64,000 nucleotides of DNA from Dehalococcoidia bacterium (GTDB lineage Bacteria > Chloroflexota > Dehalococcoidia > Lucifugimonadales > JADFKI01). The stretch covers positions 988,095 through 1,052,094 of the forward strand of contig OZ241992.1 of NCBI GenBank assembly GCA_965204445.1. The letters run 5' to 3'. Shown here piece after piece: positions 4,568-47,898 of the stretch. A program made the translations under genes and the position numbers. Under the pieces are notes generated by a model. It had not been told where the DNA came from. It saw nothing but the letters and a program-made list of their open reading frames with translations, and did no database searches. Every line of letters begins with the position of its first letter. The first letter of the stretch is position 1.

Positions 4568-6280
4568 GTGAACGATTATATGGATAAATGCGAATATCCC
4601 CCCACATTCGACGGCGTTCTGGCAGTCCAAGAACGCCTGCTGTCCCCCGACGGCTGCCCGTGGGATCGCCGCCAAACGCCGCTGTCCCTGCGCGATATGC
4701 TGCGCGAAGAATGCCACGAACTACTCGACGCCATGGCGTCTGGCAGCGCCGCCGATGCGGCCGAAGAGATGGGTGATGTGCTGCTGCATATCCTATTCCA
4801 AATACGCTTGAGCGCCGCCGCCTATGAGCGAGTAGCGCCGGAACGGGCGCATATTCACTACCCCTTCACGCAAGCCGACGCATTCCGCATAGTCCAACAG
4901 CGCCTTACGCAATGCCTCGCGCGCGTCAGCGAAAGCGGCGGCACAGACTGCGGTGCTACTGGCGGCGCATCCGTCCCCGCGGCAATCTGCGATATTCCGG
5001 ACGTCTGCTTACGGCGTGATAGCGATGCCGATGCTGATGCCGCAACCGCCCACGATGCAACTGCCGATGCCGATGCCGACGCCGCAACCGCCCACGATGC
5101 GCCTACTCGCAATGAGACTGCGGCAGTCCCGCAACCCAACTTTGCGGCGACCTGGGCGCTTATCGCAGACGCTTTCGGCGCAAACGGCGGCTTGCGCCAT
5201 ATGGACGCATCGCCCCAAGCGCGGGCGCCGCTCATTCGGCGCGCCTGCTATGCGCTTATGGAAAGCATAGACCCAATTGTGAACGGCGAAGAGCGCCCTA
5301 TCGCGGAAGCGGTCGCCGATGCGCTGTTCGCGGTGATGTTCGCTATGTGGCAGGCCGAAGAGCGCGGCGAGTTCGCGGCGGCGGATGTGTTCGGTGCGCT
5401 CATCGCCAAACTTGTGCGCCGCCATCCGCATGTGTTCGGCAATGCGGTGGTGTCCGACGCCGGCGAAGTCATCGCCAATTGGCACGCCATCAAGCGCTCC
5501 GAAAAGCCCGCCGACGCATCGCCCCTGGACGGCGCGCCCAAAAGCCTGCCCGCGCTGGCATACGCCCAAGCGCTCCAAACCCGCGCCGCCCGCCTTGCCT
5601 TCGACTGGGACGAATACGCCGCCGTAGTGTCCAAAGTATCCGAAGAGATCGACGAACTCCAAGCCGCCGCTACGCCCGCCGAGCGCCTAGCCGAGTACGG
5701 CGATCTGCTCTTCTCCATAGTGAACGCTGTCCGATGGCTAGACATAGACGCCGAATCCGCGCTGAGCAAGTGGAACCGCCGGCGCTTTCGCAATCTATGC
5801 GCTGTCGACGAAGCGCCGTCAAGCGCCGCCAATGCGCTGCCCAGTGTCGACATATCGACGCTGGCAAGCGCAATCCGGCCGGGCGCAGCAAGCGCGCTGC
5901 AGTTCGCCCAAGCGCTTCAGTCCCGCCTAAACGCCGACGATTACGCCACTTACGCCGTTTTGGATGAGCGCCGCCTGCCGCTGCCGCGCGCATTCGACAT
6001 AGCGCATCGGCTTAGCGCGCTTGGCGCATCCGCCGACGTCGATTCGCGCGAAACGGTTCGCATCGAGGCGGCCGATATACTCTACACGGCGGCGCAAGCG
6101 GGGCAGATCGTAGGGTTGGACGCCGAGGATGCGCTGCGCCGCGCAAGCGCCCGATTCTACCGCCGCTTCAAGCAGATGGAGCGCATATGCCGCCGGCGCG
6201 GCCAAGATTTCGGCGCGCTGCCAATGGACGCCAAAGAGGCTCTGTGGCAGCAGGCAAAGACCGAACTCGCCGCCGATTAG
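4568..6280 (+). CDS. mazG: MazG-family nucleoside triphosphate pyrophosphohydrolase, expanded (570 aa)
   Basis: CPWDRRQT...EECHELLDA...EEMGDVLLHILF, KLVRRHPHVFG, a second module SEEIDEL...EYGDLLFSIVNAVRWLDIDAE, and the C-terminal ARFYRRFKQME. GTG start as listed; an in-frame ATG at 4580 is an alternative. Confidence 0.8.
   Translation: MNDYMDKCEYPPTFDGVLAVQERLLSPDGCPWDRRQTPLSLRDMLREECHELLDAMASGSAADAAEEMGDVLLHILFQIRLSAAAYERVAPERAHIHYPFTQADAFRIVQQRLTQCLARVSESGGTDCGATGGASVPAAICDIPDVCLRRDSDADADAATAHDATADADADAATAHDAPTRNETAAVPQPNFAATWALIADAFGANGGLRHMDASPQARAPLIRRACYALMESIDPIVNGEERPIAEAVADALFAVMFAMWQAEERGEFAAADVFGALIAKLVRRHPHVFGNAVVSDAGEVIANWHAIKRSEKPADASPLDGAPKSLPALAYAQALQTRAARLAFDWDEYAAVVSKVSEEIDELQAAATPAERLAEYGDLLFSIVNAVRWLDIDAESALSKWNRRRFRNLCAVDEAPSSAANALPSVDISTLASAIRPGAASALQFAQALQSRLNADDYATYAVLDERRLPLPRAFDIAHRLSALGASADVDSRETVRIEAADILYTAAQAGQIVGLDAEDALRRASARFYRRFKQMERICRRRGQDFGALPMDAKEALWQQAKTELAAD
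5024..5107 (+). repeat. 42-bp tandem duplication inside mazG (DADADAATAHDATA / DADADAATAHDAPT)
   Basis: gatgccgatgctgatgccgcaaccgcccacgatgca at 5024 is repeated as gatgccgatgccgacgccgcaaccgcccacgatgcg at 5066. Confidence 0.8.
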
Positions 6281-6357
6281 CGGTTACGCATCGGACATTC
6301 ACGCCCGCCGATAATCCGATATGCGCCGCGTGCGCTGACCGCCCTGTCTATCTCACA

Positions 6358-7938
6358 TCACAGATTGCGTATCGACGGAAACTTCAGCGCCAGCGCCAGT
6401 GCGGCCACGGCTACCAGCGCGCATGCTATCAGCGTGGCGGCGGGCGCTCCCATTCGTTGCGCTATAGCCCCCGCCGCAAGGCTGCCAAGCGGCATTGCGC
6501 CGAATGTCAGGATGTATATGCCCGAAACCCTGCCGCGAATGTCATCGGGCAATACGCTTTGCATCGTTGCGCCCGTAACCGAAAAGAACGCCATCGTTCC
6601 CACGCTGCTCAGTGCCGCCAACGGATACGCCAGCGCGATTGACGAGTTTAGCGCAAACGCCGCCATTGACGCGCAGCACAGCGCTATGCTGCCGAAGATG
6701 ATCCAGCCCTTGCGCGCAACATCACCCACCGACGCCAGCGTCAGCGTGCCTATGACGAAGCCGGCGCCAACCGCGGACATCAGCAGCCCAAGCCGCGTAG
6801 GCCCCACATCGAACACCTCTGCGGCATACACCGGTATTAGCCCGTGCATAAACGGGGACACCAGCACCGCCGGCAGAAAGCCGAACAGCAGCAGCCCCAG
6901 CACAACCGAATGCTCGCGAATGTAGCGCGCGCCCTCTAGAATGTCCGCGATTGCGCCACGCGCGCTTAGGCGGGACTTGGGGACGCTCGGCGTAACGCGC
7001 AGTCCAAGTATCACCGCGGCGGCGCACGCCATTATCGCGCCCTCCAGCAGCAGCGCCGCGCCCGCCCCCGCAAACGCAAGCAATGCGCCGCCCACCGCAG
7101 GGATGGCGAGCCGAGTTAGACTGAACGCCAGCGAGTTCAGCGCAAAGGCGTTCACCAGGTTATGGCGCGGCACCGTGGCTGGTATCAGCGTCATTCGCGC
7201 AGGATCGGTTATCACCCACGACACGCCCATCAGGAATACGAAGCCGAATATGTGCCAGGCGTTCACTTCGCCCAACAGCGCCAGCGCCCCGAAGCCGGAC
7301 GCAAGCAGCGCCTGATACACGAACACGCCCGCAAGCAGTTTGCGCTTGTTCCACCTATCCACAAGCAGCCCGCCCAAGGGGCCGGCAAGCAAAATCGGCA
7401 GCGCGTCCAAGCCCATCGCCACGCTTGTGAGCAGCGCCGATTCGGTAATCCGATAGGTAAGCCAGCCGATGACCACCTGCTGCAGCCAGAACGCCCCGCT
7501 GAAGAACAGCGTGGACGCCCATAGGAAGCGGTAGCCTACATAGCGAAACGAATCGAAGGTATGCACGCGCATAGGGCGCATATGCGGCATGCGCGCGCGA
7601 ATGCGGGGATGCGGAATGTGCGGATGCGGGATATGCGGCCGCATAACGCGCGGCGATATGCGCGGATGCGGGACGCGCGGGCGAATGCGGCGCGGCGGCG
7701 CTATGGGCGCCGATACGGCGTCCGCCGGCTCGACTATGATTTCGCCCACGGGATGGGCGGCCGCTACGCCCTGCTGTTCGGGCGTGGGCTGCAGGCTAAC
7801 CGCCGGCTCCGTCGCCTCTGCGGGAACGAGGCTCTTTACCGACTGCTCTGCAGCGTCCGACGGGGTAGTAGGTTTGAGGTCCGTAGATAAGGTGTAGCTT
7901 TCAGGTTTGCGAAACGCGCCAGACCCGTTCTTATTCAC
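6358..7938 (-). CDS. MFS transporter (12-TM type) with a possible ~130-aa low-complexity N-terminal extension
   Basis: Multiple hydrophobic helices after FRYVGYRFLWASTLFFSGAFW, with an LVDRWNKRKLL loop typical of MFS. The N-terminal part is Pro/His/Arg-rich. The start is uncertain (GTG 7938 versus the internal Met cluster MPHMRPMRV). Confidence 0.8.
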   Translation of the reverse strand: MNKNGSGAFRKPESYTLSTDLKPTTPSDAAEQSVKSLVPAEATEPAVSLQPTPEQQGVAAAHPVGEIIVEPADAVSAPIAPPRRIRPRVPHPRISPRVMRPHIPHPHIPHPRIRARMPHMRPMRVHTFDSFRYVGYRFLWASTLFFSGAFWLQQVVIGWLTYRITESALLTSVAMGLDALPILLAGPLGGLLVDRWNKRKLLAGVFVYQALLASGFGALALLGEVNAWHIFGFVFLMGVSWVITDPARMTLIPATVPRHNLVNAFALNSLAFSLTRLAIPAVGGALLAFAGAGAALLLEGAIMACAAAVILGLRVTPSVPKSRLSARGAIADILEGARYIREHSVVLGLLLFGFLPAVLVSPFMHGLIPVYAAEVFDVGPTRLGLLMSAVGAGFVIGTLTLASVGDVARKGWIIFGSIALCCASMAAFALNSSIALAYPLAALSSVGTMAFFSVTGATMQSVLPDDIRGRVSGIYILTFGAMPLGSLAAGAIAQRMGAPAATLIACALVAVAALALALKFPSIRNL

Positions 7939-27363: not shown

Positions 27364-28476
27364 CTACAGGCGCTTGAGCGCCGCCGCCAGCGATTCGCCG
27401 AGCTGCCGCCGCTGCCAATTGCGCACGGCGTCGTCCGCCATCTCAGCGTCCAGTTCGCGCGGATGCAACGATAGGCGATCGAGGCTCGCTAGGGGCCACA
27501 CCAGCCCGGGGTCGAGCGCAAGCCGCTTGGCGTTCGACGCCCGCCACTCTTTGAGCAACCTAAGGCGTTTGCGCGCCGAACTGCGCTCATCCGGGGTTGC
27601 GCGATGCCCGTTTGCGGCGAAGCTGCGCTTGGGACGCTTGAACGGACCGGCTTCGATCCCCTCGCGCAATGCCCGTCGCACGCCCGACGAGTATCGACCG
27701 CGCGCATAGCGGCCGAGTCCCTTCACCTTGCTCAGATCGGAGCGCGGATTTGCCGCCAGCGCAAGCATCGCGGCGTCGGAGAATACCTTGAACGGCGGAC
27801 GGTCGCGGCGCAGCGCCTCAACTTCGCGGAACATATACAGCGATTGCAGCGCCGCCAAGCCCTTGCCGTCCAAAGCGCCGCTGCCCTTCACGGACAGAAA
27901 GCCCATCTCTATATCGGGCGGCGTGTACTCCACATTGGCGAGCCGCTCGCACTCTTCCGCCACCCAATCCGTTCTGCCCAGTTCGGCAAGCTTTTGGCGC
28001 AAAAGCGCGGTCAGGCGTTCGAGATATATCACATCATCGGCGGCGTACCGCACCTGCTCATCCGAAAGCGGGCGCAGCGTCCAATCGGCGCGCTGCAGCT
28101 TCTTGGACTTGTTCACTTCCACGCCCAGATACTCTTGCAGAACCGCCCCCAAGCCAAGCCTGTCGGAGCCGGCGAATGCGGCGGCGATGCCGGTATCGAA
28201 CAGCGGCCGAATGCGAAAGCCCCAATCGCGCTGCAGGCTTCGCACATCGTGATTGGCGGCGTGGAATATCTTCTCTACGGACGGCGCGGCAAGCAGTTCG
28301 CCAAGCGGCGCAAGCTCTTGCGGGTCAAGCGTATCAAGCGGGTCTATGAGGAAGACGCCGTCCGCTGTGGCGAGTTGCACAAGGCATATGCGCTCAGGGT
28401 AGCGGTAGAAGCCGTTGGACTCGATGTCCAAAGCAACGCGCGGCTGCTTCAGCGCGGACGCCACAACCGCGCCCAA
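27364..28476 (-). CDS. rnd: Ribonuclease D (DEDD 3'-5' exonuclease + HRDC domain)
   Basis: ALDIESNGFYRYPERICLVQLAT, HAANHDVRSL, QRADWTLRPLSDEQVRYAADDVIYL, and an HRDC-like C-terminus. The TTG start at 28476 is the first canonical start, but the frame stays open upstream and keeps looking like an RNase D N-terminus (see findings). Confidence 0.85.
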   Translation of the reverse strand: MGAVVASALKQPRVALDIESNGFYRYPERICLVQLATADGVFLIDPLDTLDPQELAPLGELLAAPSVEKIFHAANHDVRSLQRDWGFRIRPLFDTGIAAAFAGSDRLGLGAVLQEYLGVEVNKSKKLQRADWTLRPLSDEQVRYAADDVIYLERLTALLRQKLAELGRTDWVAEECERLANVEYTPPDIEMGFLSVKGSGALDGKGLAALQSLYMFREVEALRRDRPPFKVFSDAAMLALAANPRSDLSKVKGLGRYARGRYSSGVRRALREGIEAGPFKRPKRSFAANGHRATPDERSSARKRLRLLKEWRASNAKRLALDPGLVWPLASLDRLSLHPRELDAEMADDAVRNWQRRQLGESLAAALKRL

Positions 28477-30549: not shown

Positions 30550-33381
30550 TTACTGCCCCAACCCCGCATACCGCCGCCCCGTCACCGACGGCTCCGCGGC
30601 TAGATGGCGGCGTATCGTCGCCACGCGCTCGGCGTCTATGTCCAGCGCTTCGCATACGGCGGCGTCTAGGGCGGCGCGCGCAGGGTCGGCGTCCATGCGC
30701 GGCAGCGGCAGCAGCGCCTGTTCGCATAGCGCATCGTATTCGGCCGCCAAGCGCAGCGCCGCCGGCTCGCACAGCGCCGCAAAGTCGGGGACGGGGATCT
30801 TGCGCAGATCCGTCATTGAGAACTTAGGATAGGTCGGCTTCGTATTTGAGCGGTCGCCCAGCATCGCTAGTACGCCAACCGATGAGTTGAGATAGACGCA
30901 GAGCGCCTTTTCGAGCGCATCGGCATCTATGCCCGCTACTTCGGGCTTGCAGGGCGCCCAAGCCGAACCCAAGCAGGGATGGGCTAAGCGTACTGCCGTT
31001 ACTCTTACGGTTGGCAGGTTTATCCTGTTTGGCAGCAGCATTGTGCCGCGCTGTTCCCATAGGCGATTCGCCTGCGCCTCTTTGCCCTCTTTTGCCGTTA
31101 CAAAGGTGTCGGGCTCGGCAAGCATTGATTGCGTAACGCCCGATTTGTGGTCCCAAAGCGCGGCCATCCCAATTTCATCGGGAAAATCGGAGCGAACAAA
31201 GTTGCCGCGCAAGCCCCTTCCATCGGGTCCAATGGCGGCGATGCTTTCCAAAGGCAATGCAGCGGCAAGTTCGCTTCGCCCTAGCGAAACGAATTCGCTG
31301 ACGAGGGTGGGCGAAAGAAACTGAACCGATCCCCAGTCGCCGGCTTCTATATCGTTTGCCGAAACCCGCTGAAGCGTCCCTAACCCCCTTGCTACGGTAG
31401 AGTCGTTTTGAATCGCTTCAGCCGCAGCGTAGGCTTCAGCCGGCGTTGACGGGTTTATCGCCAAGTTGACCACCCTAGTCGGCGGCTTGCCCCCTTCGCG
31501 CCAATCCCAAACGCGGCATACCAGCAGCATTTCCCCGATGCTGGTGCTATCCGAGAAATAGATGCGCTGCGGATCGTGAGAGGTTACGATATACTCCACC
31601 CAGTAGCGGCCGCCGATGTACTTTCGTATATCTAGCGCCGATGCGTTTGTGGCGGTTACAAGCGGCAGTATTACGGCTATTTTGCTGTCCCCGCTCTTTC
31701 GCATAAAGTCCGCCAAGATTATAAAGGCGTTGCCGTTGCTTGATAGATGCACGGGCTTGTTGCTGAACAGCATCTTCTCGCGCGCCTTGATTTTGCGCTC
31801 ATCGGCGGCGCTGAACTGGTCATGGCGCAGGCTATTGCGCGTGAAGGGCGGGTTCATTATCACCAGGTCGGCGGGTTCGGACTGCGCCATGTCGTCGCCG
31901 TTTTCTACCTGAGCTACCGGCTGGGCGGCGTTGGGCCACGACATCATCTTGGGTTTCAGATCCAGAAACTCCAGCGAACCTAGGTATGCGTCGCCCTCTT
32001 CATCAACGCCTAGGAAGGCGCGCCCTATCTTCATTTTGCGAAAAGAGGTTGTAGGGGATAGCAGCCCCAGCGTAGTCGCCGCCATATGAGTTGCGGTGAG
32101 GTTGACGTCGTAGCCGCACAGCACCTGCTCGATCAGCGCCTGCGCGAAAGCGTCGTCGTCTCTGGTTTGGGGCGATAGGTCGCGGATGCGCTCCGCCGCC
32201 GCCATTAGCAGCGTGCCGGTGCCGCATGCCGGATCCACGATGCGAAGGCTGGCGACGGCGTCGGGATCGTTCCAATCGCGCATATCCTCATCTATGGCAA
32301 GCGTGGCGAGCAGCGTGGCGGCGGGAGTGGATGTGTAGAACGAGCCGTCATAGGGAGCAGAATCCAGAACCCTATGGAAGATGCGTCCCATAAGATCGTG
32401 GCGCAGTCCCGCGATGTTGCCGGCTACCGCCAGCGCCGCTTTGGCGGTTTCGCGGACGGCGTTGGTGAAGGCGGGATCGGGCGGGCAGGCTTGCAAGGCG
32501 GCTCGTCCGGTCTCGAAGATGGGCTTGTAGTCCAGCGCCAGTATCAGATTCCAAGCGTCTGAAAAGTCCGATCCGGGGTTGTCCGAATCGGCGCAGCGCT
32601 GCGCCATTTGGGGCGGCCATTCGTCGGTGAAGGGCGCATTGTCAAGAATGCGGTTATCGTATTCGGGACGCATTCCTTCGAGATGGTAATCCAAGCGCGA
32701 ATGGAACATCACGGCGGTCGCCACCACCAGCAACGCGCGCTTGGCGGCTCTGTCCCAGCGCGTTGCGTCCGTCTTGCCCGCCTTGCGCGCCTCGCGCTGG
32801 GGCAGATCCATATGCTGCGCTAGAAAGCGCCGCTGCGTTTTGTTCAGATAGGACACGGCGACGTCGAGGCTGTCGGACAGCGCCGCCGCCGTGTGGTCGG
32901 GGTTGCCGAGCTGCATGGGCGCAAGCCGAATGACGCGCGGCAGTTCGGCGGCGTCGGCTTCGTTCCATGTCGGCGCAGCGCCCTGCCGCAGTCTGTCCGG
33001 CGAGCGAATAGCCCAGAGAACGCGGCAGTTTCGCATTTGTTCTTTGCGGGTGATGCCGTCGGGGTAGCATACGGCGATAGCGCAGTCCGCGAGGTTCTGC
33101 GTAAGGCGGGCGTCGGCGTCTCTGACGGCTTCGCTGCGCTTGGCGGTGGACTGCCCTTGCTCTGCCTCAAGCGCGATCCTCGCCGATCCCACGCTGATAA
33201 GCACGTCGATGCGCCTTCTGCCCGCCGCATGCTCCTGCTTGGCGTCCAATCCCCGTTGGATCAGCAGCTCCGCCAGCCACACATTGAGGGTGTGTTCATG
33301 CTCTCTTTCAATCATGTTCGCTTTCCCCAGTTCGGTTAGGATGCGCGGGTTGGAATGCGCGGTCGGCCTTTTAGGCATCAT
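30550..33381 (-). CDS. Fused N-terminal nuclease-like domain + gamma-class N6-adenine DNA methyltransferase + C-terminal specificity-like region (Type IIG/IIL-like restriction-modification candidate)
   Basis: SAM motif I IVDPACGTGTLLMAAAERI, catalytic motif IV DLVIMNPPFTRNS, and an N-terminal RRIDVLISVGSARIALEAEQG (D-x12-E-x-E, PD-(D/E)xK-like). 943 aa, with no separate partner genes adjacent. Confidence 0.7.
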   Translation of the reverse strand: MMPKRPTAHSNPRILTELGKANMIEREHEHTLNVWLAELLIQRGLDAKQEHAAGRRRIDVLISVGSARIALEAEQGQSTAKRSEAVRDADARLTQNLADCAIAVCYPDGITRKEQMRNCRVLWAIRSPDRLRQGAAPTWNEADAAELPRVIRLAPMQLGNPDHTAAALSDSLDVAVSYLNKTQRRFLAQHMDLPQREARKAGKTDATRWDRAAKRALLVVATAVMFHSRLDYHLEGMRPEYDNRILDNAPFTDEWPPQMAQRCADSDNPGSDFSDAWNLILALDYKPIFETGRAALQACPPDPAFTNAVRETAKAALAVAGNIAGLRHDLMGRIFHRVLDSAPYDGSFYTSTPAATLLATLAIDEDMRDWNDPDAVASLRIVDPACGTGTLLMAAAERIRDLSPQTRDDDAFAQALIEQVLCGYDVNLTATHMAATTLGLLSPTTSFRKMKIGRAFLGVDEEGDAYLGSLEFLDLKPKMMSWPNAAQPVAQVENGDDMAQSEPADLVIMNPPFTRNSLRHDQFSAADERKIKAREKMLFSNKPVHLSSNGNAFIILADFMRKSGDSKIAVILPLVTATNASALDIRKYIGGRYWVEYIVTSHDPQRIYFSDSTSIGEMLLVCRVWDWREGGKPPTRVVNLAINPSTPAEAYAAAEAIQNDSTVARGLGTLQRVSANDIEAGDWGSVQFLSPTLVSEFVSLGRSELAAALPLESIAAIGPDGRGLRGNFVRSDFPDEIGMAALWDHKSGVTQSMLAEPDTFVTAKEGKEAQANRLWEQRGTMLLPNRINLPTVRVTAVRLAHPCLGSAWAPCKPEVAGIDADALEKALCVYLNSSVGVLAMLGDRSNTKPTYPKFSMTDLRKIPVPDFAALCEPAALRLAAEYDALCEQALLPLPRMDADPARAALDAAVCEALDIDAERVATIRRHLAAEPSVTGRRYAGLGQ

Positions 33382-35380: not shown

Positions 35381-37729
35381 CTAATCGACCCTGAACTCCG
35401 TCGGAAGCGCGTACTCTGACTTCTCTATTATTTCCTCAGGAACCTTCAGGTCTGTGCCGTACTTAATGCCTATCACTTCTTCATTGTAGGTTTGGCACCA
35501 GTCCCTGTCGTTGGATGTGCGAGTCCACGTATAGCGATCGACTTCGTAAGTCGATTCATCTACAACTAGCGTTATTTCAAGGGTTTCGTCTATTCCCCAT
35601 TCAATAAATGGGTTGTCATAGCGAATTTCTAGCGTTATCTTTCCGTCTGACCGATCCACCGCTTTCACATCGTATTCGTCAGCGAAACCGCCGTTGTTAT
35701 CGGTCAATCGGAAGTTGCTGTAGAGCAACTGGCCGAGCGATCTGTGAAGTTTGGCGTTTCCGAGGGGCCAATTGGTTGAATCACGGAGTTGCTCTCGGCT
35801 AATCTTTGTCCAACTACCTGATACTTTAGTCCAATGCTGCCAACCGTCAGCATCATCAGCATAGGCTTCGTCTGAGTGAAAGATGAAGAACGATTTGCCG
35901 CCTTCGCGCAAATAGGCTATCTGAGAGTCATCGATCCCGTCGCCCCAACGCAGGAAATGGCTTATCTCATATGCAGCCCAGTCAGGATACCCAAACGCTC
36001 CGCCGCAATTGGCGTCTAGCCAGCCACCTCTAAGCTTCATCCACATTGACCCCGCGTGCCGCAAAGTGGCGTAAGTCCGCTCAAGGAATTTATGCAGGTC
36101 AAAGTCTTCCTGCGGGCTGTCCAGAAGTTCATCCCTGAGAACTGTGAGTTTTCTTACCTCGCTCATGGTCATCCCGGGTTCAACCAGTGGATGAGAGTTA
36201 AGCGCGAGTATCGCTTTGTCCATATATGTGAGGTAACCCATACCGGCCATAACGCTGATTACGTTGCTAAATTCGGCGTGCGACGTAGGCGCAAGCGCAT
36301 GCAACCCTTCGTGAAGAATCACCGCCGTCATATAGGACTTCAGCTTTTCATAATCGGTTAGGTTTGGATCTTCATCTTCACCTTGAAATATAGTGAAAGC
36401 GCCGCCGTCAACCACTGACCAGTTGCCTCTATTGTCTTGTGTAAGACTGGTTGGGCCTCCAAAGCCCCAGCAGTATTCACATCTTTTCCATTCACGGTCA
36501 TCATCGAGTGGTTTTCGGAATGTTGCCACAAAGTCGGCGTCAGCCTTGTTATCGACCCACTGAAACTCAAGGTTAAGCAAGGGCGCAAGCCGCTCATCAA
36601 AGATTTCTTTAGTGGATCGGATGTAGTTCGGGTGGCCTTCTCCATAAACTTTGACAACGGATCCGCTGCGCCACTTTTCCACGACGTCCGAGCGCCATCC
36701 GTAACATCCGTGATTTCCTTCATAGTTTCTTGATTTATCCCTATCGCTATAACATTCCCACACTTCCCGTTCCACGCCTAGGATGCGCTCCGGCACAACC
36801 ACATTCACGGTCAAAGCCGTATCACCGCCGTAGTCTATATCAAGCGCGGCGTTTCCCATAGGCAGACGCAGCGCGAGGTTGGATTCGCCCGCGCTAAATC
36901 CGTCGGGCAGCGCTATTTCCGTCGTCCCGCCGCAATCCTCAATCGGGCTGCCATCTCGCGCGCAAGATATGGCGATGCGCTGCGTTTCCTCATAGGGCAG
37001 CCTGCCCTCATTTCGCAGCGATAGCGCTACATTCACATTTGCCGTTCCATCAGACCAGAAACCCGCAATCGAAGTCATAGCGTTTAGCTTTAGCAGCGTC
37101 GGAACGCGCGTCGATGTTGGCGTTGGAATGATTTTTGCGACGGTGGTTGCGGTGGCTTTTGTAACGTCCTCTAGCCTTGGGGAGAGTGGGGGCGTTGGCG
37201 GCGCAGAGATTGTAGGCAGCGGCGTGGGCAACGTGGGTGGCGTGGGAAACACCGATGGCGGCGTGGGCAGCGGCTCAAGCGTAGGCGGCAGTTGCGGCGG
37301 CGTAGGAAACGACGTCGGCAGCGCGGGCGGCGTGGGGGGAACCATGATGAACGGCGTCGCGCTAGGGCTTGGAGTAGGCGGCGGCGTAGATGTTGGCGGC
37401 GCAGGAACGCCGGCGGCCGTGGTGGTGGCGCGCACGCTGGCGTCTATCGTCGCTTGCGCATTCGGCGTATTCGTGGGCATTATTGTTGAAGTAGCGGTTG
37501 GAACTGCCATTGGCGCAAGTTGCGTCAGCGTCGTCGGCACGGGCAAGCCCTGTCCCGAAGAGGCGTAATACCAGGCGGCCGCAGCGCCTGTCGCGATTAT
37601 CAGCAGCGCCGCAATGCCTGGCGCGGAGCCGAATGTGTTGTGGCAGCGGCGGCAGCGGTATCTATTGAACAGGTGAAACTTGTATCGCTTGCGCGTGTTT
37701 CGACTTTCGCAGCGGGGACACTTTTTCAT
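35381..37729 (-). CDS. Membrane-anchored protein: cytoplasmic zinc ribbon, TM helix, Pro/Thr-rich linker, extracytoplasmic domain with a metzincin-like HExxH motif
   Basis: MKKCPRCESRNTRKRYKFHLFNRYRCRRCHNTF, TM GIAALLIIATGAAAAWYYA, linker PPTSTPPPTPSPSATP...PTPPTLPTPLPT, then AVILHEGLHALAPTSHAEF...SVMAGMGY. The C-terminal about 1.4 kb is visibly less GC-rich than its surroundings. Confidence 0.6.
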   Translation of the reverse strand: MKKCPRCESRNTRKRYKFHLFNRYRCRRCHNTFGSAPGIAALLIIATGAAAAWYYASSGQGLPVPTTLTQLAPMAVPTATSTIMPTNTPNAQATIDASVRATTTAAGVPAPPTSTPPPTPSPSATPFIMVPPTPPALPTSFPTPPQLPPTLEPLPTPPSVFPTPPTLPTPLPTISAPPTPPLSPRLEDVTKATATTVAKIIPTPTSTRVPTLLKLNAMTSIAGFWSDGTANVNVALSLRNEGRLPYEETQRIAISCARDGSPIEDCGGTTEIALPDGFSAGESNLALRLPMGNAALDIDYGGDTALTVNVVVPERILGVEREVWECYSDRDKSRNYEGNHGCYGWRSDVVEKWRSGSVVKVYGEGHPNYIRSTKEIFDERLAPLLNLEFQWVDNKADADFVATFRKPLDDDREWKRCEYCWGFGGPTSLTQDNRGNWSVVDGGAFTIFQGEDEDPNLTDYEKLKSYMTAVILHEGLHALAPTSHAEFSNVISVMAGMGYLTYMDKAILALNSHPLVEPGMTMSEVRKLTVLRDELLDSPQEDFDLHKFLERTYATLRHAGSMWMKLRGGWLDANCGGAFGYPDWAAYEISHFLRWGDGIDDSQIAYLREGGKSFFIFHSDEAYADDADGWQHWTKVSGSWTKISREQLRDSTNWPLGNAKLHRSLGQLLYSNFRLTDNNGGFADEYDVKAVDRSDGKITLEIRYDNPFIEWGIDETLEITLVVDESTYEVDRYTWTRTSNDRDWCQTYNEEVIGIKYGTDLKVPEEIIEKSEYALPTEFRVD

Positions 37730-38911: not shown

Positions 38912-39586
38912 CTAATCGGGGGATGGGCGAAGCGGCAGCATAGTGCGGACGGCGTCGGCGTCTATGACAATCAAGCCGTCGGCGAGTTGGGTGAGATCCC
39001 TGGCGACGGTTGCGGGGTTTGGGGTGGCGATTAGCGCTCTCACGCCGAAATCCTGCACGGTGCGGATGACTTCGGCAAAGTCTTGGTCGCCCGATACAAG
39101 CACGGCGGTGGAATAGGCGGAGCGGCCGGCTAGGCGCACCATATCTAGCGCAATCAGGGTGTCGACGCCTTTCTGCCGTCGATCCGGCGGGAATGTCCAG
39201 TTTTGATCGAACTCGGACAGCAGTTTGTCGGGGGACACTTCGATGTTGCGCGCGGTCTTTCTGACTGCCTGCCGAATGGGTTCCGCCAGCGGGGATGGCC
39301 GCTCTACTATGTGGCCAAGCCGCAGTTGGATGCCGGGGGTTCGCGCGATGATGTGGAAGTATTGACGCTGGCCGTCGTACCACTGGTGCGACGGCTCGAA
39401 TGCGCCTTCGTACCAGTAGGCGCGCAGGAATGATTGGTTCATGCCTTCATCCGCCGCCAACTTTCGCAGCCAATCCACGACGGCGGATGCGTTTATGTGA
39501 ACATCCACGCCCCTTTTGCCGATAACGCTTGCGCCCTGCGCGCGCAAGTAAAAGGCGTCAACGAACCCCACCAGCATATCAGCCAT
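38912..39586 (-). CDS. NYN (LabA-like / DUF88) domain protein
   Basis: QKGVDTLIALDMVRLAGRSAYSTAVLVSGDQDFAEVIRTVQDFGVRALI is the characteristic NYN/LabA core. Confidence 0.8.
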   Translation of the reverse strand: MADMLVGFVDAFYLRAQGASVIGKRGVDVHINASAVVDWLRKLAADEGMNQSFLRAYWYEGAFEPSHQWYDGQRQYFHIIARTPGIQLRLGHIVERPSPLAEPIRQAVRKTARNIEVSPDKLLSEFDQNWTFPPDRRQKGVDTLIALDMVRLAGRSAYSTAVLVSGDQDFAEVIRTVQDFGVRALIATPNPATVARDLTQLADGLIVIDADAVRTMLPLRPSPD

Positions 39587-41438: not shown

Positions 41439-42947
41439 TTAGTCGTCGCCGGCGGCGGCGGGTTCCGGCAGCGCGCGCAGATCGGCCGATCTGAAGTCGC
41501 GCGGCGGCGTGGCTATCTCGCTCAGTTCAGGTATGTCCTGATTGGCGGCGACGCCGTATTCCGAGAACCTGCGCGCCGATGTCAGCACGCGCGATTCCAG
41601 CGATCCCACGCCGCTGTTGAATGCCTTGACCGCGCTGTCAAGCGAGCTGCCCATCCGCGACATATGTCCGGCGAATACGCGGATGCGGTCGTGGAGTTCC
41701 TGTCCAAGCGCGGCTACTTTGGCGGCTTCTTCTTCGATTTGCGCCTCGCGCCAGCCCATCGCCACCGCTTTGAGCAGCGCCATAAGCGTGTTGGGCGTGG
41801 CGATGATGACATTGCGCTGCATCGCCCAGTCAATCAGATCGCGGTCGGTTTCCAGCGCGGCGGACAGCAGGTATTCGCCGGGCAGGAACATCACCACGAA
41901 GTCGGGGGAACGCTCGAATATCTGCTGATACGCCTTCTGCGACAGATTTTGCGCGCGTTCTCTGACCTGCTGCGAATGGCGGCGGATAGCGTCTTGGCGC
42001 GCGTCGGCGGTGTCCGATTCCACGGCGGTGAGATAGGCGTTCATCGGCGCTTTGGCGTCCACCACGATGGTGCGGTTGTTGGGCATGCGCACCACCATAT
42101 CGGGGCGGTCGCGGCTGCCGTCGTCCGCCGTTACGCTGACCTGCTCTTCGTAGTCGCAGTAGTCTTGCATGCCCGCCAGTTCCACCACGCGGCGGAGCTG
42201 CATTTCGCCCCAAGAGCCGCGCACTTCGGGACGCTTGAGCGCGGTGGCGAGGCTGCGGGTTTCGGAGACAAGGCTGTTGTTGTTCTCTTGCAGCGCCTTG
42301 ATCTGCGCCGTCAGGCTGCCCTGCGATTTGTTGCGCGCCTCTTCAATGCGCTTGAGTTCGTCGGACAGGGGCTTGACCAGTTCGTTCACGGCGTCTTTGC
42401 TGAGGGAAAAGTCTTTGTTCGCCTGCGTTACCAGCGCGCCTATCTTTTCGTCCGCCGCCTTGATGAACTGGTCGTTGTTGGATTTGAGCGCATCGCTCGC
42501 CATAACCTTGAACCGGTCAAGCAGCGTCTTTTCGATGTCGGTCTGCTCGGCGAGGCGCTTGTTGGCGGCGTCGAGTTGCGCCTTTAGGTCGGCAACCTCC
42601 GCTGCGTTAGCCGCCGTCTGCCGCTGCGCGCGGTCGTTGGCGTCGCGAAGTTCGGCATTCGTTTGTTCGAGCGCGGCGTATCGCTCTTGGGACGCCTCAA
42701 ACGTAGCGTTGAGGCCGGCGATTTGCGTATCGCCGTCAGCGGCTTTCTGCCGGTATTCTTCGGCGCTGCGCTTGTGTTCGGCGGCGGCGCTTTCGGCGTC
42801 CGTGATGCGCTTGTTGGCGGCGTCAAGCTCGGCGCGCAGATTTGCGCCTGCGCCGCCTGCGCGCAGCCGCATAGCGAGCCACGCCAGCAGCCCGCCGAAT
42901 GCGCCGCCGAATATCAAACCTACGATGATGGCAAGAATGGTTTCCAA
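41439..42947 (-). CDS. rmuC: DNA recombination protein RmuC
   Basis: N-terminal TM helix, a long Ala/Glu/Lys coiled coil, then RPDMVVRMPNNRTIVVDAKAP and DFVVMFLPGEYLLSAAL, which are typical of RmuC. Confidence 0.9.
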   Translation of the reverse strand: METILAIIVGLIFGGAFGGLLAWLAMRLRAGGAGANLRAELDAANKRITDAESAAAEHKRSAEEYRQKAADGDTQIAGLNATFEASQERYAALEQTNAELRDANDRAQRQTAANAAEVADLKAQLDAANKRLAEQTDIEKTLLDRFKVMASDALKSNNDQFIKAADEKIGALVTQANKDFSLSKDAVNELVKPLSDELKRIEEARNKSQGSLTAQIKALQENNNSLVSETRSLATALKRPEVRGSWGEMQLRRVVELAGMQDYCDYEEQVSVTADDGSRDRPDMVVRMPNNRTIVVDAKAPMNAYLTAVESDTADARQDAIRRHSQQVRERAQNLSQKAYQQIFERSPDFVVMFLPGEYLLSAALETDRDLIDWAMQRNVIIATPNTLMALLKAVAMGWREAQIEEEAAKVAALGQELHDRIRVFAGHMSRMGSSLDSAVKAFNSGVGSLESRVLTSARRFSEYGVAANQDIPELSEIATPPRDFRSADLRALPEPAAAGDD

Positions 42948-43023: not shown

Positions 43024-43452
43024 TTAGACGCTCTCAGATCTTATTGTAGTTATCGTCCAGTGGTCGATTTCGACGCAATGTTCGCCGTTCTTGAACATTC
43101 GAAGTTCGGGCATTTCGGCTATTGCGTCGGTGAAAGCGTCCATAGCGATGTCGTCCAACCTGTAGCAGTTGGCTTCGTGTTTGGCGTTCACCCAACCGAA
43201 AACCTCGCAGGCGGGGCAATCCGCGTCATATGTATGGTCGTCGTTGTCGAAGTCTTGCGCGGTGAAACCCTCAATCACGATTTGGCAGTCCACTGCCAGC
43301 ATAAACATCGCCGCGTGCGCACTGTTGGGGAATGGGGCGCACCATATGTCCACCTCAATCGCATCTACATCTTGCATATAGATGCGGTCGTGGGGCAGAT
43401 CTACGGCGAAAGCATTTAGTTTGAGCAAATTGGATTCTTGCGCGCGGCTCAC
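43024..43452 (-). CDS. Hypothetical acidic 142-aa protein, translationally coupled to the upstream PLD nuclease gene
   Basis: GTG start 4 nt after the PLD stop, with GGAGG inside the end of the upstream gene. Asp/Glu-rich (DFDNDDHTYDADCPACEVFGW). I recognise no family. Lower GC than the flanks. Confidence 0.55.
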   Translation of the reverse strand: MSRAQESNLLKLNAFAVDLPHDRIYMQDVDAIEVDIWCAPFPNSAHAAMFMLAVDCQIVIEGFTAQDFDNDDHTYDADCPACEVFGWVNAKHEANCYRLDDIAMDAFTDAIAEMPELRMFKNGEHCVEIDHWTITTIRSESV

Positions 43453-43456
43453 TTTG

Positions 43457-44323
43457 TCAGACTAGCCTCCATAGATCGCCTTCGCGAACTATAACGCCTT
43501 GACGCCTCAAAACCTGCTGTGCGTTCAGAACATCGTGCCGCCATTTGGTATCGAGTTCAACGCCGCGCACTACGCGCTTCACATCGTCGTCGCACCATTC
43601 GGGCATCAGATCTTGGACTAGCGGGTAGATTTCGCGGGTGGGCAAAGCGCCATGCCGACGCAGCAGATATTTTACCGCATCGCCGAACTTGCCAGTGATG
43701 GTTGCGTCGGGATTGATCTTGAATTCGTCCGAGCTTGTGCTGAGTTCGGTCAACCGCCCCGATATGCTATTGAGCGCGCTGTTGTATTCCGAGTTGGCAT
43801 CGTCGGCAGTGGCGCTATCGGCGGCGCTTTTGGCTTGGCGCGCCCGATGCGCCATCCCGTCCAATTCGATGAGCGCATCCGTAGGAATCGGTATGCCGAA
43901 GTTGCCGTATTCGCGCAAATCGTCCGCTATTTCTTTGACCGCGCGCGTGTCCGTGATTGCAACGCCCAACTCATAGTTGCGCCAAATGCCGCCCCGCGTG
44001 AGGTTGGCGGATGTAACGATGGCGGTATGATCATCCGCTACATAGGCTTTGGCGTGCAGGTTGCGCAGGTGGCGGACGGCGGTTCTAGGGACTTGGTCGC
44101 ACAGCCAAGCAAGCGCCGCGCCATCCACAGAACCCTCGCAGAGGCTTTGTCCGGCTAGGTTGGTCAGCACATCTAGGCGAATGGCATTGCGCGCGCGCAA
44201 CCCCTCGGCAAGCCGTTCGATCGGCTCGCGCGTGATGAACGGCGCAACGATGATCGCCGATTCTTGTATAGAACCGACGAACCGATCGAAAGCGTCTTGC
44301 CAAGGGGATGTGATGGACTGCAC
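43457..44323 (-). CDS. Phospholipase D (HKD) superfamily nuclease with a C-terminal winged-helix (Mrr_N-like) domain
   Basis: Single HKD motif LHAKAYVADDHTAIVTSANLTRGG (HxKx4Dx6[G/T]SxN). The C-terminal AVKYLLRRHGALPTREIYPLVQDL...KWRHDVLNAQQVLRRQGVIVREGDLWRLV resembles restriction-system winged helices. Confidence 0.75.
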   Translation of the reverse strand: MQSITSPWQDAFDRFVGSIQESAIIVAPFITREPIERLAEGLRARNAIRLDVLTNLAGQSLCEGSVDGAALAWLCDQVPRTAVRHLRNLHAKAYVADDHTAIVTSANLTRGGIWRNYELGVAITDTRAVKEIADDLREYGNFGIPIPTDALIELDGMAHRARQAKSAADSATADDANSEYNSALNSISGRLTELSTSSDEFKINPDATITGKFGDAVKYLLRRHGALPTREIYPLVQDLMPEWCDDDVKRVVRGVELDTKWRHDVLNAQQVLRRQGVIVREGDLWRLV

Positions 44324-44340: not shown

Positions 44341-45231
44341 CTACCGCTGGCGCACGAACTTTTGGATGCGCTGTCCCTCCAGCACTTCGCCCACGTAGAT
44401 GTCGCCGCGCGAGTCGATCGCCATTCCGTGCGGGGCGTAGAACAGGCCGGGCGCGTGGCTGTGCTCATCGCCCCAGCGCGCCAGCAGGTTGCCCTCTTCG
44501 TCTATGATGCTGACGCGGTGCTGCAGCTCAGGCACATATATCTCGCCGTCGGGGCCGAACGCCACCGATGTGGGCTGCTGAAAGCCCGTCCACATCATCT
44601 GGAATTCGCCGTCTTCGTCGAACACCTGGATGCGGTGGTTTTCGCGGTCTGCCACTACCACGCGGTTGTGGCGGTCGACGCCGATGCCGTGCGGCAGATG
44701 GAAGTCGCCGGGGTTGATTTTGCCGGGCAGTCCCCACGAGTTCATCAGCGAGCCGCTGGCGTTGTAGTGATGCACGCGGCAGTTGCTGTAGCCGTCCGAT
44801 ATGAACAGGTCGCCGAAGTTGCCGATTGCGATGCCGGTGGGCATGTTGAACGGGCCGCCGGGCTTCTCTACAAGGAAGCGCTGGCTCTGTTCGCCGGTGT
44901 CGGACGGCATGTCGCGCGTGCCAAGCGTGAGCAGCAGATCGCCGTCTGCGTTGCGCTTTTCGACGACGTGCGAGTCCCTGTCCGCTAGGAACACATTGCC
45001 GTCGTCGTCCACGCATATGCCGTGCGGCTCTTTGTGTTTGAGGTCCCAAGAGCGCAGGTAGTCGCCAGCGCGGTTGAAGATGACGAGGTTGTGCGTGCCG
45101 CGGTTATAGACATACACATTGTCGGCGCCGTCCACCGCCACATCCGCCACCTGCTTGAACTCGAAGCCGTCGGGCAGCGCGCCCCATCCCTCAGCGACTT
45201 CGTAGGTGTAATCTCCGCTTCCGAATGCCAT
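44341..45231 (-). CDS. NHL-repeat six-bladed beta-propeller protein (peptidylglycine amidating lyase-like)
   Basis: Repeated blades: ADVAVDGADNVYVYNRG, PHGICVDDDGNVFLADRDSH, PTGIAIGNFGDLFISDGY, PHGIGVDRHNRVVVADREN, PTSVAFGPDGEIYV, PHGMAIDSRGDIYV. ATG 45231 lies 8 nt after GGAGG. Confidence 0.82.
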   Translation of the reverse strand: MAFGSGDYTYEVAEGWGALPDGFEFKQVADVAVDGADNVYVYNRGTHNLVIFNRAGDYLRSWDLKHKEPHGICVDDDGNVFLADRDSHVVEKRNADGDLLLTLGTRDMPSDTGEQSQRFLVEKPGGPFNMPTGIAIGNFGDLFISDGYSNCRVHHYNASGSLMNSWGLPGKINPGDFHLPHGIGVDRHNRVVVADRENHRIQVFDEDGEFQMMWTGFQQPTSVAFGPDGEIYVPELQHRVSIIDEEGNLLARWGDEHSHAPGLFYAPHGMAIDSRGDIYVGEVLEGQRIQKFVRQR

Positions 45232-45427
45232 AACTATGACCTCCCAAATCATAATTCGCTTGTCTTGATGTCTGTCTTGAAGGGGGCGTCAATGCACGCG
45301 CCAGCCGCCCAAGCGCGGACGGGGGCGGTCACTCAAAGCCCACAGCGGTTGTGCGGTCAATATACGGGGTTAAGGCAAGGGGGGTCAAGCGCCGGGGCAA
45401 GAGGTGATAGGGTGGGGGAGCGAGCGC

Positions 45428-47106: not shown

Positions 47107-47526
47107 TTAGGGTAAGTCAGGGCGGGCGCGCCAGTGAGAGGCGTCCCTCAGTTCTTGGGCATGCCGCTTCTGTTCGCCTCTGTCATCTGCGGCGCTTTGC
47201 GGCAGGATGATGTCTGTGTGATATGGATTGATGTTAGGTATGGGAGACGCCTCTACTATACGTCCGTTAAGCGCCGCATTGGAAGCGCTTACTACCGCCC
47301 ATCCGTAGAAATTGCGATTTCGCGCGCCGTCTCGCGCGTCAGCGATGGCAAGCGCCTCATTCAACGGCGCAATGCTAAGCCTGTCAACCGAAATATGGAT
47401 TTCGCCCTGCCTTGGCAAGAACTCATTGATGGGAAGCAAAGAGCGGCGCGCTCGGTTCGCGCTATTTCTTGAAGATACGCCGCGTCCCAGTTCTTCATCC
47501 GCCGCAATAGTTTCAGGAATCTGCAT
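47107..47526 (-). CDS. Hypothetical 139-aa protein (second gene of a two-gene cassette)
   Basis: Open frame starting 6 nt after the upstream gene. Conserved-looking block FYGWAVVSASNAALNGRIVEASPIPNINPYHTDIILP. I recognise no family. Confidence 0.55.
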   Translation of the reverse strand: MQIPETIAADEELGRGVSSRNSANRARRSLLPINEFLPRQGEIHISVDRLSIAPLNEALAIADARDGARNRNFYGWAVVSASNAALNGRIVEASPIPNINPYHTDIILPQSAADDRGEQKRHAQELRDASHWRARPDLP

Positions 47527-47532
47527 TGAATC

Positions 47533-47898
47533 TTATGTTAGTCCGCGTCCCAGTTCCATAAAAACTTCCCGCAGAAACTTGTCAGGGAGCGTATCCGCGT
47601 TGGGGTAGCGCTTGCTGCGATGTCCGCTTGCTAAGTTCGCCAGGCACAGCGCACCGCCGCCGGATTCGCATAGCAGCGCCACCGATTGACCGCGCCCATT
47701 TGGGACATCCAACGCTATCTCTGCGTCAGGGGTGGGATACACTTCAATACGCAGGCGGGACATATCTTGTATCGCGCGTATCAGACGCTCCGCGTTGCTA
47801 ATGGCGGTTTTGGACGGAACGGGGAAGTTTTCTTCAATAGCATACTCGGCCGCTGTCTCTAAATCCCTTAGTGCGGCGGTGGATAGGGATACAACCAT
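47533..47898 (-). CDS. Hypothetical 121-aa protein (first gene of a two-gene cassette)
   Basis: ATG preceded by GAGG. An extended -10 promoter (TGTTATAAT, reverse complement around 47944-47952) lies about 45 nt upstream. I recognise no family. Confidence 0.55.
   Translation of the reverse strand: MVVSLSTAALRDLETAAEYAIEENFPVPSKTAISNAERLIRAIQDMSRLRIEVYPTPDAEIALDVPNGRGQSVALLCESGGGALCLANLASGHRSKRYPNADTLPDKFLREVFMELGRGLT

Follow-up and report, generated by a model that had tools for sequence, protein, structure and literature searches.

A nuclease-like gene and a small acidic gene as a candidate two-gene module

A stretch of 64,000 nucleotides (nt) from the genome of a Dehalococcoidia bacterium (contig OZ241992.1, positions 988,095 to 1,052,094; hereafter the window) carries two adjacent genes on its minus strand, which encode a protein of 288 amino acids (aa) with an HKD motif and a winged-helix-like C-terminal domain (HKD-wH) and a small acidic protein of 142 aa. 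Our preferred reading is that the two genes are one module, in which a restriction-type DNA endonuclease is combined with a cognate small protein that binds the enzyme and restrains or regulates it; we give this reading a probability of roughly 45%. All conclusions on the module are drawn from comparative evidence. The partner is interchangeable, since at least four mutually unrelated families of small proteins (A, B, C and E) adjoin the same family of nucleases, and the small protein of the window belongs to family A.

Both genes had been picked out in an original prediction, which was made from the letters of the window alone, and both open reading frames (ORFs) are present in the sequence (Table 1). 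Their close coupling could be read directly as described there: the TGA stop codon of the HKD-wH gene (43459..43457) is followed after a gap of 4 nt by the GTG start codon of the small gene at 43452, a Shine-Dalgarno-like GGAGG embedded in the 3′ end of the HKD-wH gene is located at a distance of 13 nt from this GTG, and the pair is separated by 17 nt from an NHL gene (44341..45252) and by 76 nt from rmuC (41439..42947).

The 288-aa ORF, which includes LHAKAYVADDHTAIVTSANLTRGG and KWRHDVLNAQQVLRRQGVIVREGDLWRLV, was matched by the phospholipase D (PLD) model PLDc_2 of Pfam over residues 22–136 (E 3e-11, 43.6 bits versus a cut-off of 27) and by the PLDc active-site motif (E 3e-5, 24.3 bits versus a cut-off of 21.9). 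The motif HxK(x)4D...(S/T)xN that defines the PLD superfamily was found once per chain and lies within a PLD fold. H89, K91, D96, S104 and N106 were invariant in an end-to-end alignment of 30 full-length homologues, and in a wider set of 70 full-length members, drawn from several phyla, conservation of the catalytic H, K, D, S and N was still at least 90%. The AlphaFold2 (AF2) model was confident (pLDDT 89.5, pTM 0.87), and a Foldseek search against the PDB gave NucT (E 7e-7), Nuc, the SauUSI nuclease domain and Zucchini as best matches; the single-HKD nucleases were aligned over ~150 residues (about 145–160 columns) with TM-scores relative to the target of 0.67–0.77. Phosphatidylserine synthase and lipid-acting PLDs ranked lower. 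The model thus supports a structural grouping of the HKD-wH protein with nucleases and not with lipid enzymes, as had been predicted. Reading of the N-terminal sequence revealed no signal peptide, and no membrane segment was found in the protein. Matches to defence models of PADLOC and NCBIfam (DrmC, ZacB, MkoB) covered the HKD core only and were far under the family cut-offs. By analogy with Nuc and BfiI, a single active site would be built from the PLD domains of two chains.

The small partners belong to unrelated families

The genomic surroundings were surveyed in 44 loci of the enzyme clade with at least 50% identity. A small acidic gene directly follows the HKD-wH gene in 35 of the 44 (family A in 6, family B in 29), with a gap of about 4–17 nt between the stop codon and the small gene. 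Family A was found directly after an HKD-wH gene outside the window in L001, L002, L005, L008, L009 and L010, so that the pair does co-occur in other genomes, a point on which the original prediction had asked for a check. Further evidence came from the partner side: three of three additional B homologues were located 4–24 nt after a PLDc_2 gene of 287–292 aa, and these three span different genomic contexts, one of them being a quite different neighbourhood.

The family A protein of the window is indeed strongly acidic (isoelectric point (pI) 4.23, net charge -19). The family is narrow, with 12 homologue clusters; an alignment of 13 members (seven of 141 aa and six of 134–142 aa, two with 134 aa being devoid of the N-terminal eight residues) has 47 invariant columns, including the four cysteines C56, C79, C82 and C96. 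Neither the 142-aa protein nor the small protein of family B had a match in Pfam, NCBIfam, PADLOC or PHROGs; the pairing thus corresponds to no named system, and the original prediction had not recognised it as one either. Profiles of A and B found no match in the PDB sequence set. Since the AF2 model of family A reached a pLDDT of 64 and had no Foldseek match below E 0.3, it was considered unusable. A search of 1.84 billion representative proteins with the family A profile returned a single full-length cluster and, as the only credible relative at a greater distance, P0256 (226 aa, L088 5001-5681; hhalign probability 94.8%). P0256 is encoded on a 200-kb scaffold together with a ribonucleotide reductase, a Macro protein, two AAA_15 ATPases and MPTase-PolyVal. 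Most genes of this scaffold share the same strand, and it looks like a large phage or another mobile element; no HKD gene was found in the neighbourhood of P0256. Matches of the profile to cytochrome-c repeat and SRCR repeat proteins were discarded as artefacts of the cysteine pattern, and a scan of JGI metagenomes for family A gave no confirmed match.

Family B comprises acidic proteins of ~98 aa in 135 clusters. That A and B are diverged homologues was considered and rejected (hhalign probability 0.4%). Two more families were found in distant clades: family C, which is Cys-rich with a CxxCxGxG motif, lies directly downstream of the enzyme gene in 8 loci, often with an HNH_2 gene after it, and family E, acidic and ~90 aa in size, lies directly upstream in 7 loci. 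In three or four loci, the partner position is occupied by a protein of ~200 aa. A, B, C and E are mutually unrelated (hhalign probability <2%). Family scans recognised no DNA-binding domain in the partners, and none of the four families was similar, by sequence or fold, to known antitoxins, immunity proteins or DNA mimics.

Purifying selection acts on both genes

The ratio of non-synonymous to synonymous substitution rates (dN/dS, w) was 0.04–0.15 for the HKD-wH gene, 0.16–0.46 for the small gene of family A and 0.035–0.15 for the flanking genes. Between the window and L001, dS was the same for both genes (0.23), whereas dN was 0.088 for A and 0.009 for the enzyme; at equal dS, amino acids are thus exchanged ~10 times faster in A than in the enzyme. 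An orphan A gene in L003, compared with L008, gave a w of 0.46. These ratios indicate that both genes are real and under purifying selection, the orphan A included. Together with the homologues found elsewhere, they bear out the 142-aa ORF as a conserved gene.

Orphan partners and partner-less enzymes

In L009 (Dehalococcoidia), two modules are arranged in tandem at about 4730–7340, HKD-wH with B followed by HKD-wH with A. In its sister genome L010, the first enzyme has been lost and the B gene retained as an orphan; in L003, an orphan A adjoins the NHL gene and the locus contains no HKD gene. The reverse was also found: L013, L017, L021, L031 and L039 contain an intact HKD-wH gene with the catalytic motif but neither A nor B within the locus. 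In L041, L044, L050, L057 and L060, the HKD gene is split by frameshifts and the B gene is intact, which could reflect either real decay or errors in long-read assemblies.

In a neighbour-joining tree of the enzymes, those with an A partner are nested inside those with a B partner, and the upstream copy of L009, which has a B partner, is sister to the L009 and L010 copies that have A. This contradicts a clean co-divergence of enzyme and partner; gene conversion between tandem copies could explain the pattern.

The C-terminal domain is winged-helix-like

Residues 206–288 have the topology H-H-hairpin-H-beta-beta in the AF2 model, and a Foldseek search of a viral structure library returned small-domain matches of this region to winged-helix folds, for example EAP30/Vps36 with a probability of 1.0 and a target TM-score of 0.86. 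An assignment as winged helix is therefore reasonable at the level of the model, and this part of the original prediction stands. It had also related the tail to Mrr-type restriction proteins, and this we could not substantiate: the helices are collinear by eye only, Mrr_N (PF14338) of Pfam matched none of 14 members at E ≤ 10, hhalign against residues 1–110 of Mrr of E. coli gave a probability of 2%, and local alignments to Mrr differed from shuffled sequences by z = 0–3. Searches of the PDB sequence set with the profiles A3 and A5 gave no match to DpnI at E ≤ 10. A recurring weak match of the winged-helix profile to the phage tail adaptor 9s5j (E 0.002–0.004) was treated as local chance similarity.

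Mean column conservation across 70 members was highest in the HKD core (0.77) and in the putative recognition helix (0.73) and lowest in the linker (0.39). In the C-terminal domain, the positions C, DD, W, K, H, R, A and Q were at least 90% conserved across phyla in the same 70 members, and the putative recognition helix has the conserved sequence KW[KR]HxVxNAQQ. Because this helix is near-invariant across phyla, all HKD-wH members probably recognise one common feature of DNA, for instance a modification or a structure, and not differing sequences.

Distribution of the enzyme family

In the protein collection, full-length homologues of HKD-wH form at least 203 clusters. A total of 202 matches were found in 185,579 species genomes, most of them in metagenome-assembled genomes of Dehalococcoidia, and because of this small number the enzyme is not a core gene. 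Relatives with 31–45% identity occur in Planctomycetota, Acidobacteriota, Verrucomicrobiota and others. Many hosts have sponge-derived sample names and one family B protein is labelled Geodia barretti, which points to sponge-associated hosts. Full-length homologues were found neither in the phage nor in the plasmid collection nor in IMG/VR. Plasmid proteins that have the PLD domain alone occur in restriction-modification or Abi contexts; the closest of these plasmid-borne domains adjoin a cytosine methyltransferase with a BglII-type enzyme, or an Abi gene.

Genomic context

In the window, the pair is surrounded by genes encoding an NHL-repeat protein (Pfam E 1.3e-34), a canonical RmuC (Pfam E 3.5e-95), a thiamine pyrophosphate (TPP) enzyme and an amidohydrolase. 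In relatives, the slot between the NHL and the TPP enzyme genes is variable, with the order HKD-A-RmuC in the window and L001/L002, HKD-A-Uma2 in L005 and A-Uma2-Uma2 in L003. Since Uma2 genes replace rmuC in other relatives, the adjacency to rmuC, which the original prediction had noted, is incidental and confined to the nearest relatives. A functional link to rmuC or NHL was likewise rejected, as gene order and presence vary between relatives.

In genomes with a B partner, the pair usually has a HigB gene and its 130-aa neighbour on one side and a methylmalonyl-CoA mutase operon on the other. The HigB gene (PF09907, E 1.5e-32) and the unassigned 130-aa gene lie at -870 to -180 from the HKD start in L019 and ~20 other B-type loci; sometimes a MazE/PIN pair is also near, and B is often followed by a protein of ~172 aa that has a weak PaREP1-like match. 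HigB, MazE/PIN, Uma2, HNH_2 and HIRAN genes are frequent neighbours of the module.

The pair is less rich in GC than its flanks, as predicted (0.51–0.58 versus 0.62–0.65). The GC content at third codon positions (GC3) is 0.67 and 0.65 in the HKD-wH and the small gene versus 0.78–0.83 in the NHL, RmuC and TPP enzyme genes. The medians for enzyme and partner versus flanks were 0.64 and 0.80, the difference being found in essentially every host, and thus the lower GC3 is a trait of the family and not a sign of recent transfer into the genome of the window. Of the horizontally acquired islet that had been proposed, there remains that the pair also occurs in unrelated contexts; against it stand the family-wide low GC3 and the conserved syntenic positions of the pair in related genomes.

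No methyltransferase adjoining the HKD-wH gene of the window was found in the ORF list or with Pfam. At other loci, fragments or full methyltransferase genes lie beside HKD genes in a few distant cases only: short N-terminal fragments of N4/N6 methyltransferases (SPPY/SPPF/DPPF) are directly upstream of the HKD gene in the four unrelated loci L004 (5830-5985), L055, L074 and L080, and a complete methyltransferase with an EcoO109I-type enzyme is near L077. The fragments may have been left behind by a restriction-modification ancestor or by a conflict of the methylase with the nuclease. In the window itself, an N6-adenine DNA methyltransferase domain occurs in a protein of 943 aa encoded at 30550-33381 (-), ~10 kb from the HKD-wH gene. 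This protein weakly matches methylase models of type I, type IIG and PglX and is of relevance if the HKD-wH nuclease reads N6-methyladenine (6mA).

Comparison with known systems

The combination of a PLD nuclease domain with a winged helix is already described and biochemically uncharacterised: PLD-wH fusions, with Aba4572I and CbaI as examples, are the one class of winged-helix fusion endonucleases that resisted expression and purification (Helbrecht et al. 2024, Front Microbiol, PMC11037411). When introduced into E. coli on their own, these enzymes were toxic or not expressible; they are proposed to be 6mA-dependent, occur in Chloroflexi and Anaerolineae, and mostly lack a matching methyltransferase, which was upstream in one case; hypothetical proteins follow the enzyme gene in both reported neighbourhoods (PMC11037411). 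HKD-wH resembles Aba4572I and CbaI in its N-terminal PLD nuclease domain and C-terminal winged helix, a comparison of architecture and not of sequence, and L055, L074 and L077 resemble the one published case with an upstream methyltransferase. Unlike the winged helices of the published enzymes, which were found through similarity to DpnI (PMC11037411), that of HKD-wH has no detectable similarity to DpnI; the Leu-tRNA ligase neighbourhood of CbaI was not found among the HKD-wH loci. A conserved partner gene is a feature of the HKD-wH loci that is not described for PLD-wH enzymes in PMC11037411, and in the literature searched we found no description of a conserved but interchangeable small partner of such enzymes.

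Among the characterised PLD nucleases, Nuc, NucT and Zucchini are the best fold matches of the PLD domain; they consist of this domain alone, without the linker, winged helix and partner gene of HKD-wH, and Nuc is secreted whereas HKD-wH has no signal peptide. BfiI is a type IIS restriction enzyme of the PLD family and acts as a dimer with a single active site. HKD-wH has, like BfiI, one N-terminal HKD domain per chain and a separate C-terminal DNA-binding domain, and by this analogy it is expected to be a dimer with a single active site, too. However, the DNA-binding domain of BfiI is a B3-like barrel and not a winged helix, and BfiI is accompanied by methyltransferases and has no small partner, the HKD-wH of the window being the opposite in both respects. 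An assignment to BfiI itself was considered and rejected. Nor does the locus correspond to a type II restriction-modification system, as no cognate methyltransferase lies beside the HKD-wH gene of the window.

The DISARM protein DrmC is the best PADLOC/NCBIfam profile match of the PLD domain, and the original prediction had mentioned it as an analogy. The likeness does not go beyond the shared PLD domain: DrmC scored 56.7 bits versus a cut-off of 133 with the HKD core alone being aligned, and no drmA, drmB, drmD, drmE or methylase genes were found near the HKD-wH gene of the window. Membership in DISARM was therefore rejected.

Toxin-antitoxin (TA) pairs and pairs of a nuclease with its inhibitor repeatedly recruit unrelated small neutralisers. 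The HKD-wH loci resemble barnase-barstar, NucA-NuiA, colicin DNase-Im and type II TA pairs in the small, often acidic gene next to the nuclease gene. Like in TA pairs that ‘mix and match’, partners are unrelated between lineages and orphan partners are kept after loss of the nuclease. Unlike in these systems, nucleases of the HKD-wH family also occur intact without a partner, and inhibition is what we infer.

Locus layout and neighbouring genes

The coordinates of the features of the two genes are given in Table 1. The sole promoter-like site on the minus strand is upstream of the NHL gene, and no terminator-like sites were seen between NHL, HKD-wH, the small gene and rmuC. Thus, co-transcription of NHL, HKD-wH and the small gene, perhaps also of rmuC, is possible as judged from the sequence.

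Table 1 Features of the HKD-wH gene and its partner gene in the window
Feature	Position	Strand	Basis
HKD-wH gene, 288 aa, GTG start	43457..44323	(-)	ORF list
PLD catalytic domain, residues 1-140	43904..44323	(-)	Pfam residues 22-136; structure matches
HKD motif, H89-x-K91-x4-D96 ... S104-x-N106	44006..44059	(-)	Homologue conservation
Helical linker, residues 141-205, long helices 147-169 and 173-195	43709..43903	(-)	AF2
C-terminal winged-helix-like domain, residues 206-288	43460..43708	(-)	AF2 and Foldseek
GGAGG, Shine-Dalgarno-like, within the 3′ end of the HKD-wH gene	43470..43466	(-)	Direct sequence reading
Small gene, partner family A, 142 aa, GTG start	43024..43452	(-)	ORF list

Some other genes of the window may be mentioned. 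Two small genes at 47107-47526 (-) and 47533-47898 (-) encode proteins of 139 aa (GC3 0.57) and 121 aa (GC3 0.58) without a match in Pfam, PADLOC or NCBIfam; the two are found in L001 and L005 as well, at the corresponding position, and may form a further two-gene module. An ORF of 782 aa at 35381-37729 (-) has a low GC3 (0.58) and an N-terminal CxxC...CxxC motif, with no match in Pfam or PADLOC. An NYN-domain protein is encoded at 38912-39586 (-), which also matches HEC-09 of PADLOC (E 2e-9), and a 370-aa protein encoded at 27364-28476 (-) matches the C-terminal part of BrxHI (E 3e-20); nuclease- or defence-like genes of this kind are scattered amid metabolic genes.

Discussion

If the two genes are one module as we propose, the 288-aa protein would dimerise via its single-HKD PLD domain to form one composite, metal-ion-independent active site, as in Nuc and BfiI, and the two C-terminal winged-helix domains of the dimer would bind DNA. 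The translationally coupled acidic protein would be made in step with the enzyme and would protect the host by acting like an antitoxin, an immunity protein or a DNA mimic; a release of the enzyme, for example upon phage infection, is speculative. What the comparisons establish is the domain architecture, the nuclease-like fold, the conservation of the pair, the exchange of partners and the purifying selection, whereas dimerisation, cleavage of DNA, physical contact between partner and enzyme, an inhibitory direction of the effect and a role in defence are inferred. An inhibitory, antidote-like role of the partner is suggested by the tight coupling of the genes, the acidity of the partners, their repeated replacement by non-homologous proteins, the retention of orphan partners, their fast evolution and the neighbouring TA genes. 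It is also suggested by the report that PLD-wH enzymes could not be expressed by themselves (PMC11037411).

Several points weigh against this reading. The partner has no fold match (pLDDT 64) and is unlike any known antitoxin, immunity protein or DNA mimic. A simple argument of charge mimicry is weak because the enzyme is itself mildly acidic (pI 5.45) and its winged-helix domain weakly basic (pI 8.1). The chief objection to a strict toxin-antidote reading comes from the five loci with an intact HKD-wH gene and no A or B partner nearby: the enzyme is therefore not obligatorily lethal alone, unless the partner is encoded elsewhere in those genomes. Such loci are easier to explain if the enzyme does no harm to its host, for example because it depends on a modification, the partner then being an accessory. 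Finally, many genomes hold the pair amid metabolic genes in conserved synteny and not in a dense defence island.

In the strongest alternative, HKD-wH would be a stand-alone, modification-dependent (type IV) restriction endonuclease that is harmless to the unmodified DNA of its host, with the partner being an activator, adaptor, infection sensor or specificity factor. We regard this as possible, though on the whole unlikely. The enzyme has the architecture of the PLD-wH fusions from Chloroflexi and Anaerolineae that are proposed to be 6mA-dependent (PMC11037411), the near-invariant putative recognition helix fits one common ligand such as a modified base, and the enzyme alone is evidently tolerated where an intact gene has no partner. 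No methyltransferase adjoins the gene in the window, and the truncated N4/N6 methyltransferases upstream in L004, L055, L074 and L080 would be in line with a methylase that clashes with a methyl-dependent nuclease. On the other hand, the PDB profile searches (E ≤ 10) detected no sequence similarity of the winged-helix domain to DpnI, it is hard to envisage how four unrelated small proteins should provide one activating or specificity function, and orphan partners persist under purifying selection without an enzyme. Besides, the N6-adenine methyltransferase-like protein of 943 aa ~10 kb away could conflict with a 6mA-dependent enzyme, if the sequence context permits. An inhibitory partner and a modification-dependent enzyme with an accessory partner are not mutually exclusive.

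Less probable still is a classical type II TA addiction pair without a role against phages, in which the nuclease is the toxin and the small protein a labile antitoxin. Two tightly coupled, putatively co-transcribed genes that are kept together, as is typical of type II TA systems, are found here (4-nt gap with a Shine-Dalgarno-like sequence; 35/44 loci; 3/3 look-ups), the partners can be swapped, family E lies upstream of the enzyme gene, as antitoxin genes usually do, HigB and MazE/PIN pairs are found close to the module and its GC3 is below that of the flanks in essentially every host. However, a type II toxin is essentially never found intact without its antitoxin, and the loci L013, L017, L021, L031 and L039 deviate from this rule; ~5 partner-less genes out of roughly 36 intact HKD-wH genes are more than a strict toxin would lead one to expect. 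A DNA-binding domain that could serve autoregulation is not recognisable in the partners, such a domain being carried by the putative toxin instead, and no copies were found in the phage, plasmid and IMG/VR collections.

A housekeeping role in DNA metabolism (for example uptake or recombination with rmuC) or in lipid metabolism, with a small gene that is functionally unrelated to the HKD gene, would agree with the adjacency to rmuC in the window and its closest relatives, the conserved synteny beside methylmalonyl-CoA mutase in many genomes and the lower-ranking fold matches to phosphatidylserine synthase and PLD lipases, but is highly improbable given the replacement of rmuC by Uma2 genes in relatives, the presence of only 202 stretches in 185,579 species genomes, the single HKD motif per chain, the DNA-binding-type C-terminal domain, the absence of a membrane segment from the protein, the nucleases as top fold matches and the persistence of the pairing in unrelated contexts.

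Returning to the module of an endonuclease and a restraining or regulating partner, we tentatively extend it to the whole family: HKD-wH enzymes with the interchangeable partners A, B, C and E may represent previously unrecognised two-gene conflict modules (defence or toxin-antidote) of Chloroflexota, Planctomycetota and other phyla, in which the small protein is the cognate inhibitor. If this is true, the absence of the partner from the constructs would explain why the expression of published PLD-wH enzymes on their own has failed, and if PLD-wH enzymes are controlled by a co-encoded small protein, cloning of the pair together would be a direct route to their biochemistry. With a constant catalytic core and a constant putative recognition helix combined with at least four unrelated partners, the family is a clear example from nature in which the recruitment of neutralisers or regulators can be studied. 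Its hosts, uncultured Dehalococcoidia that in many cases come from samples with sponge-derived names, are poorly known as to their immunity and addiction genes.

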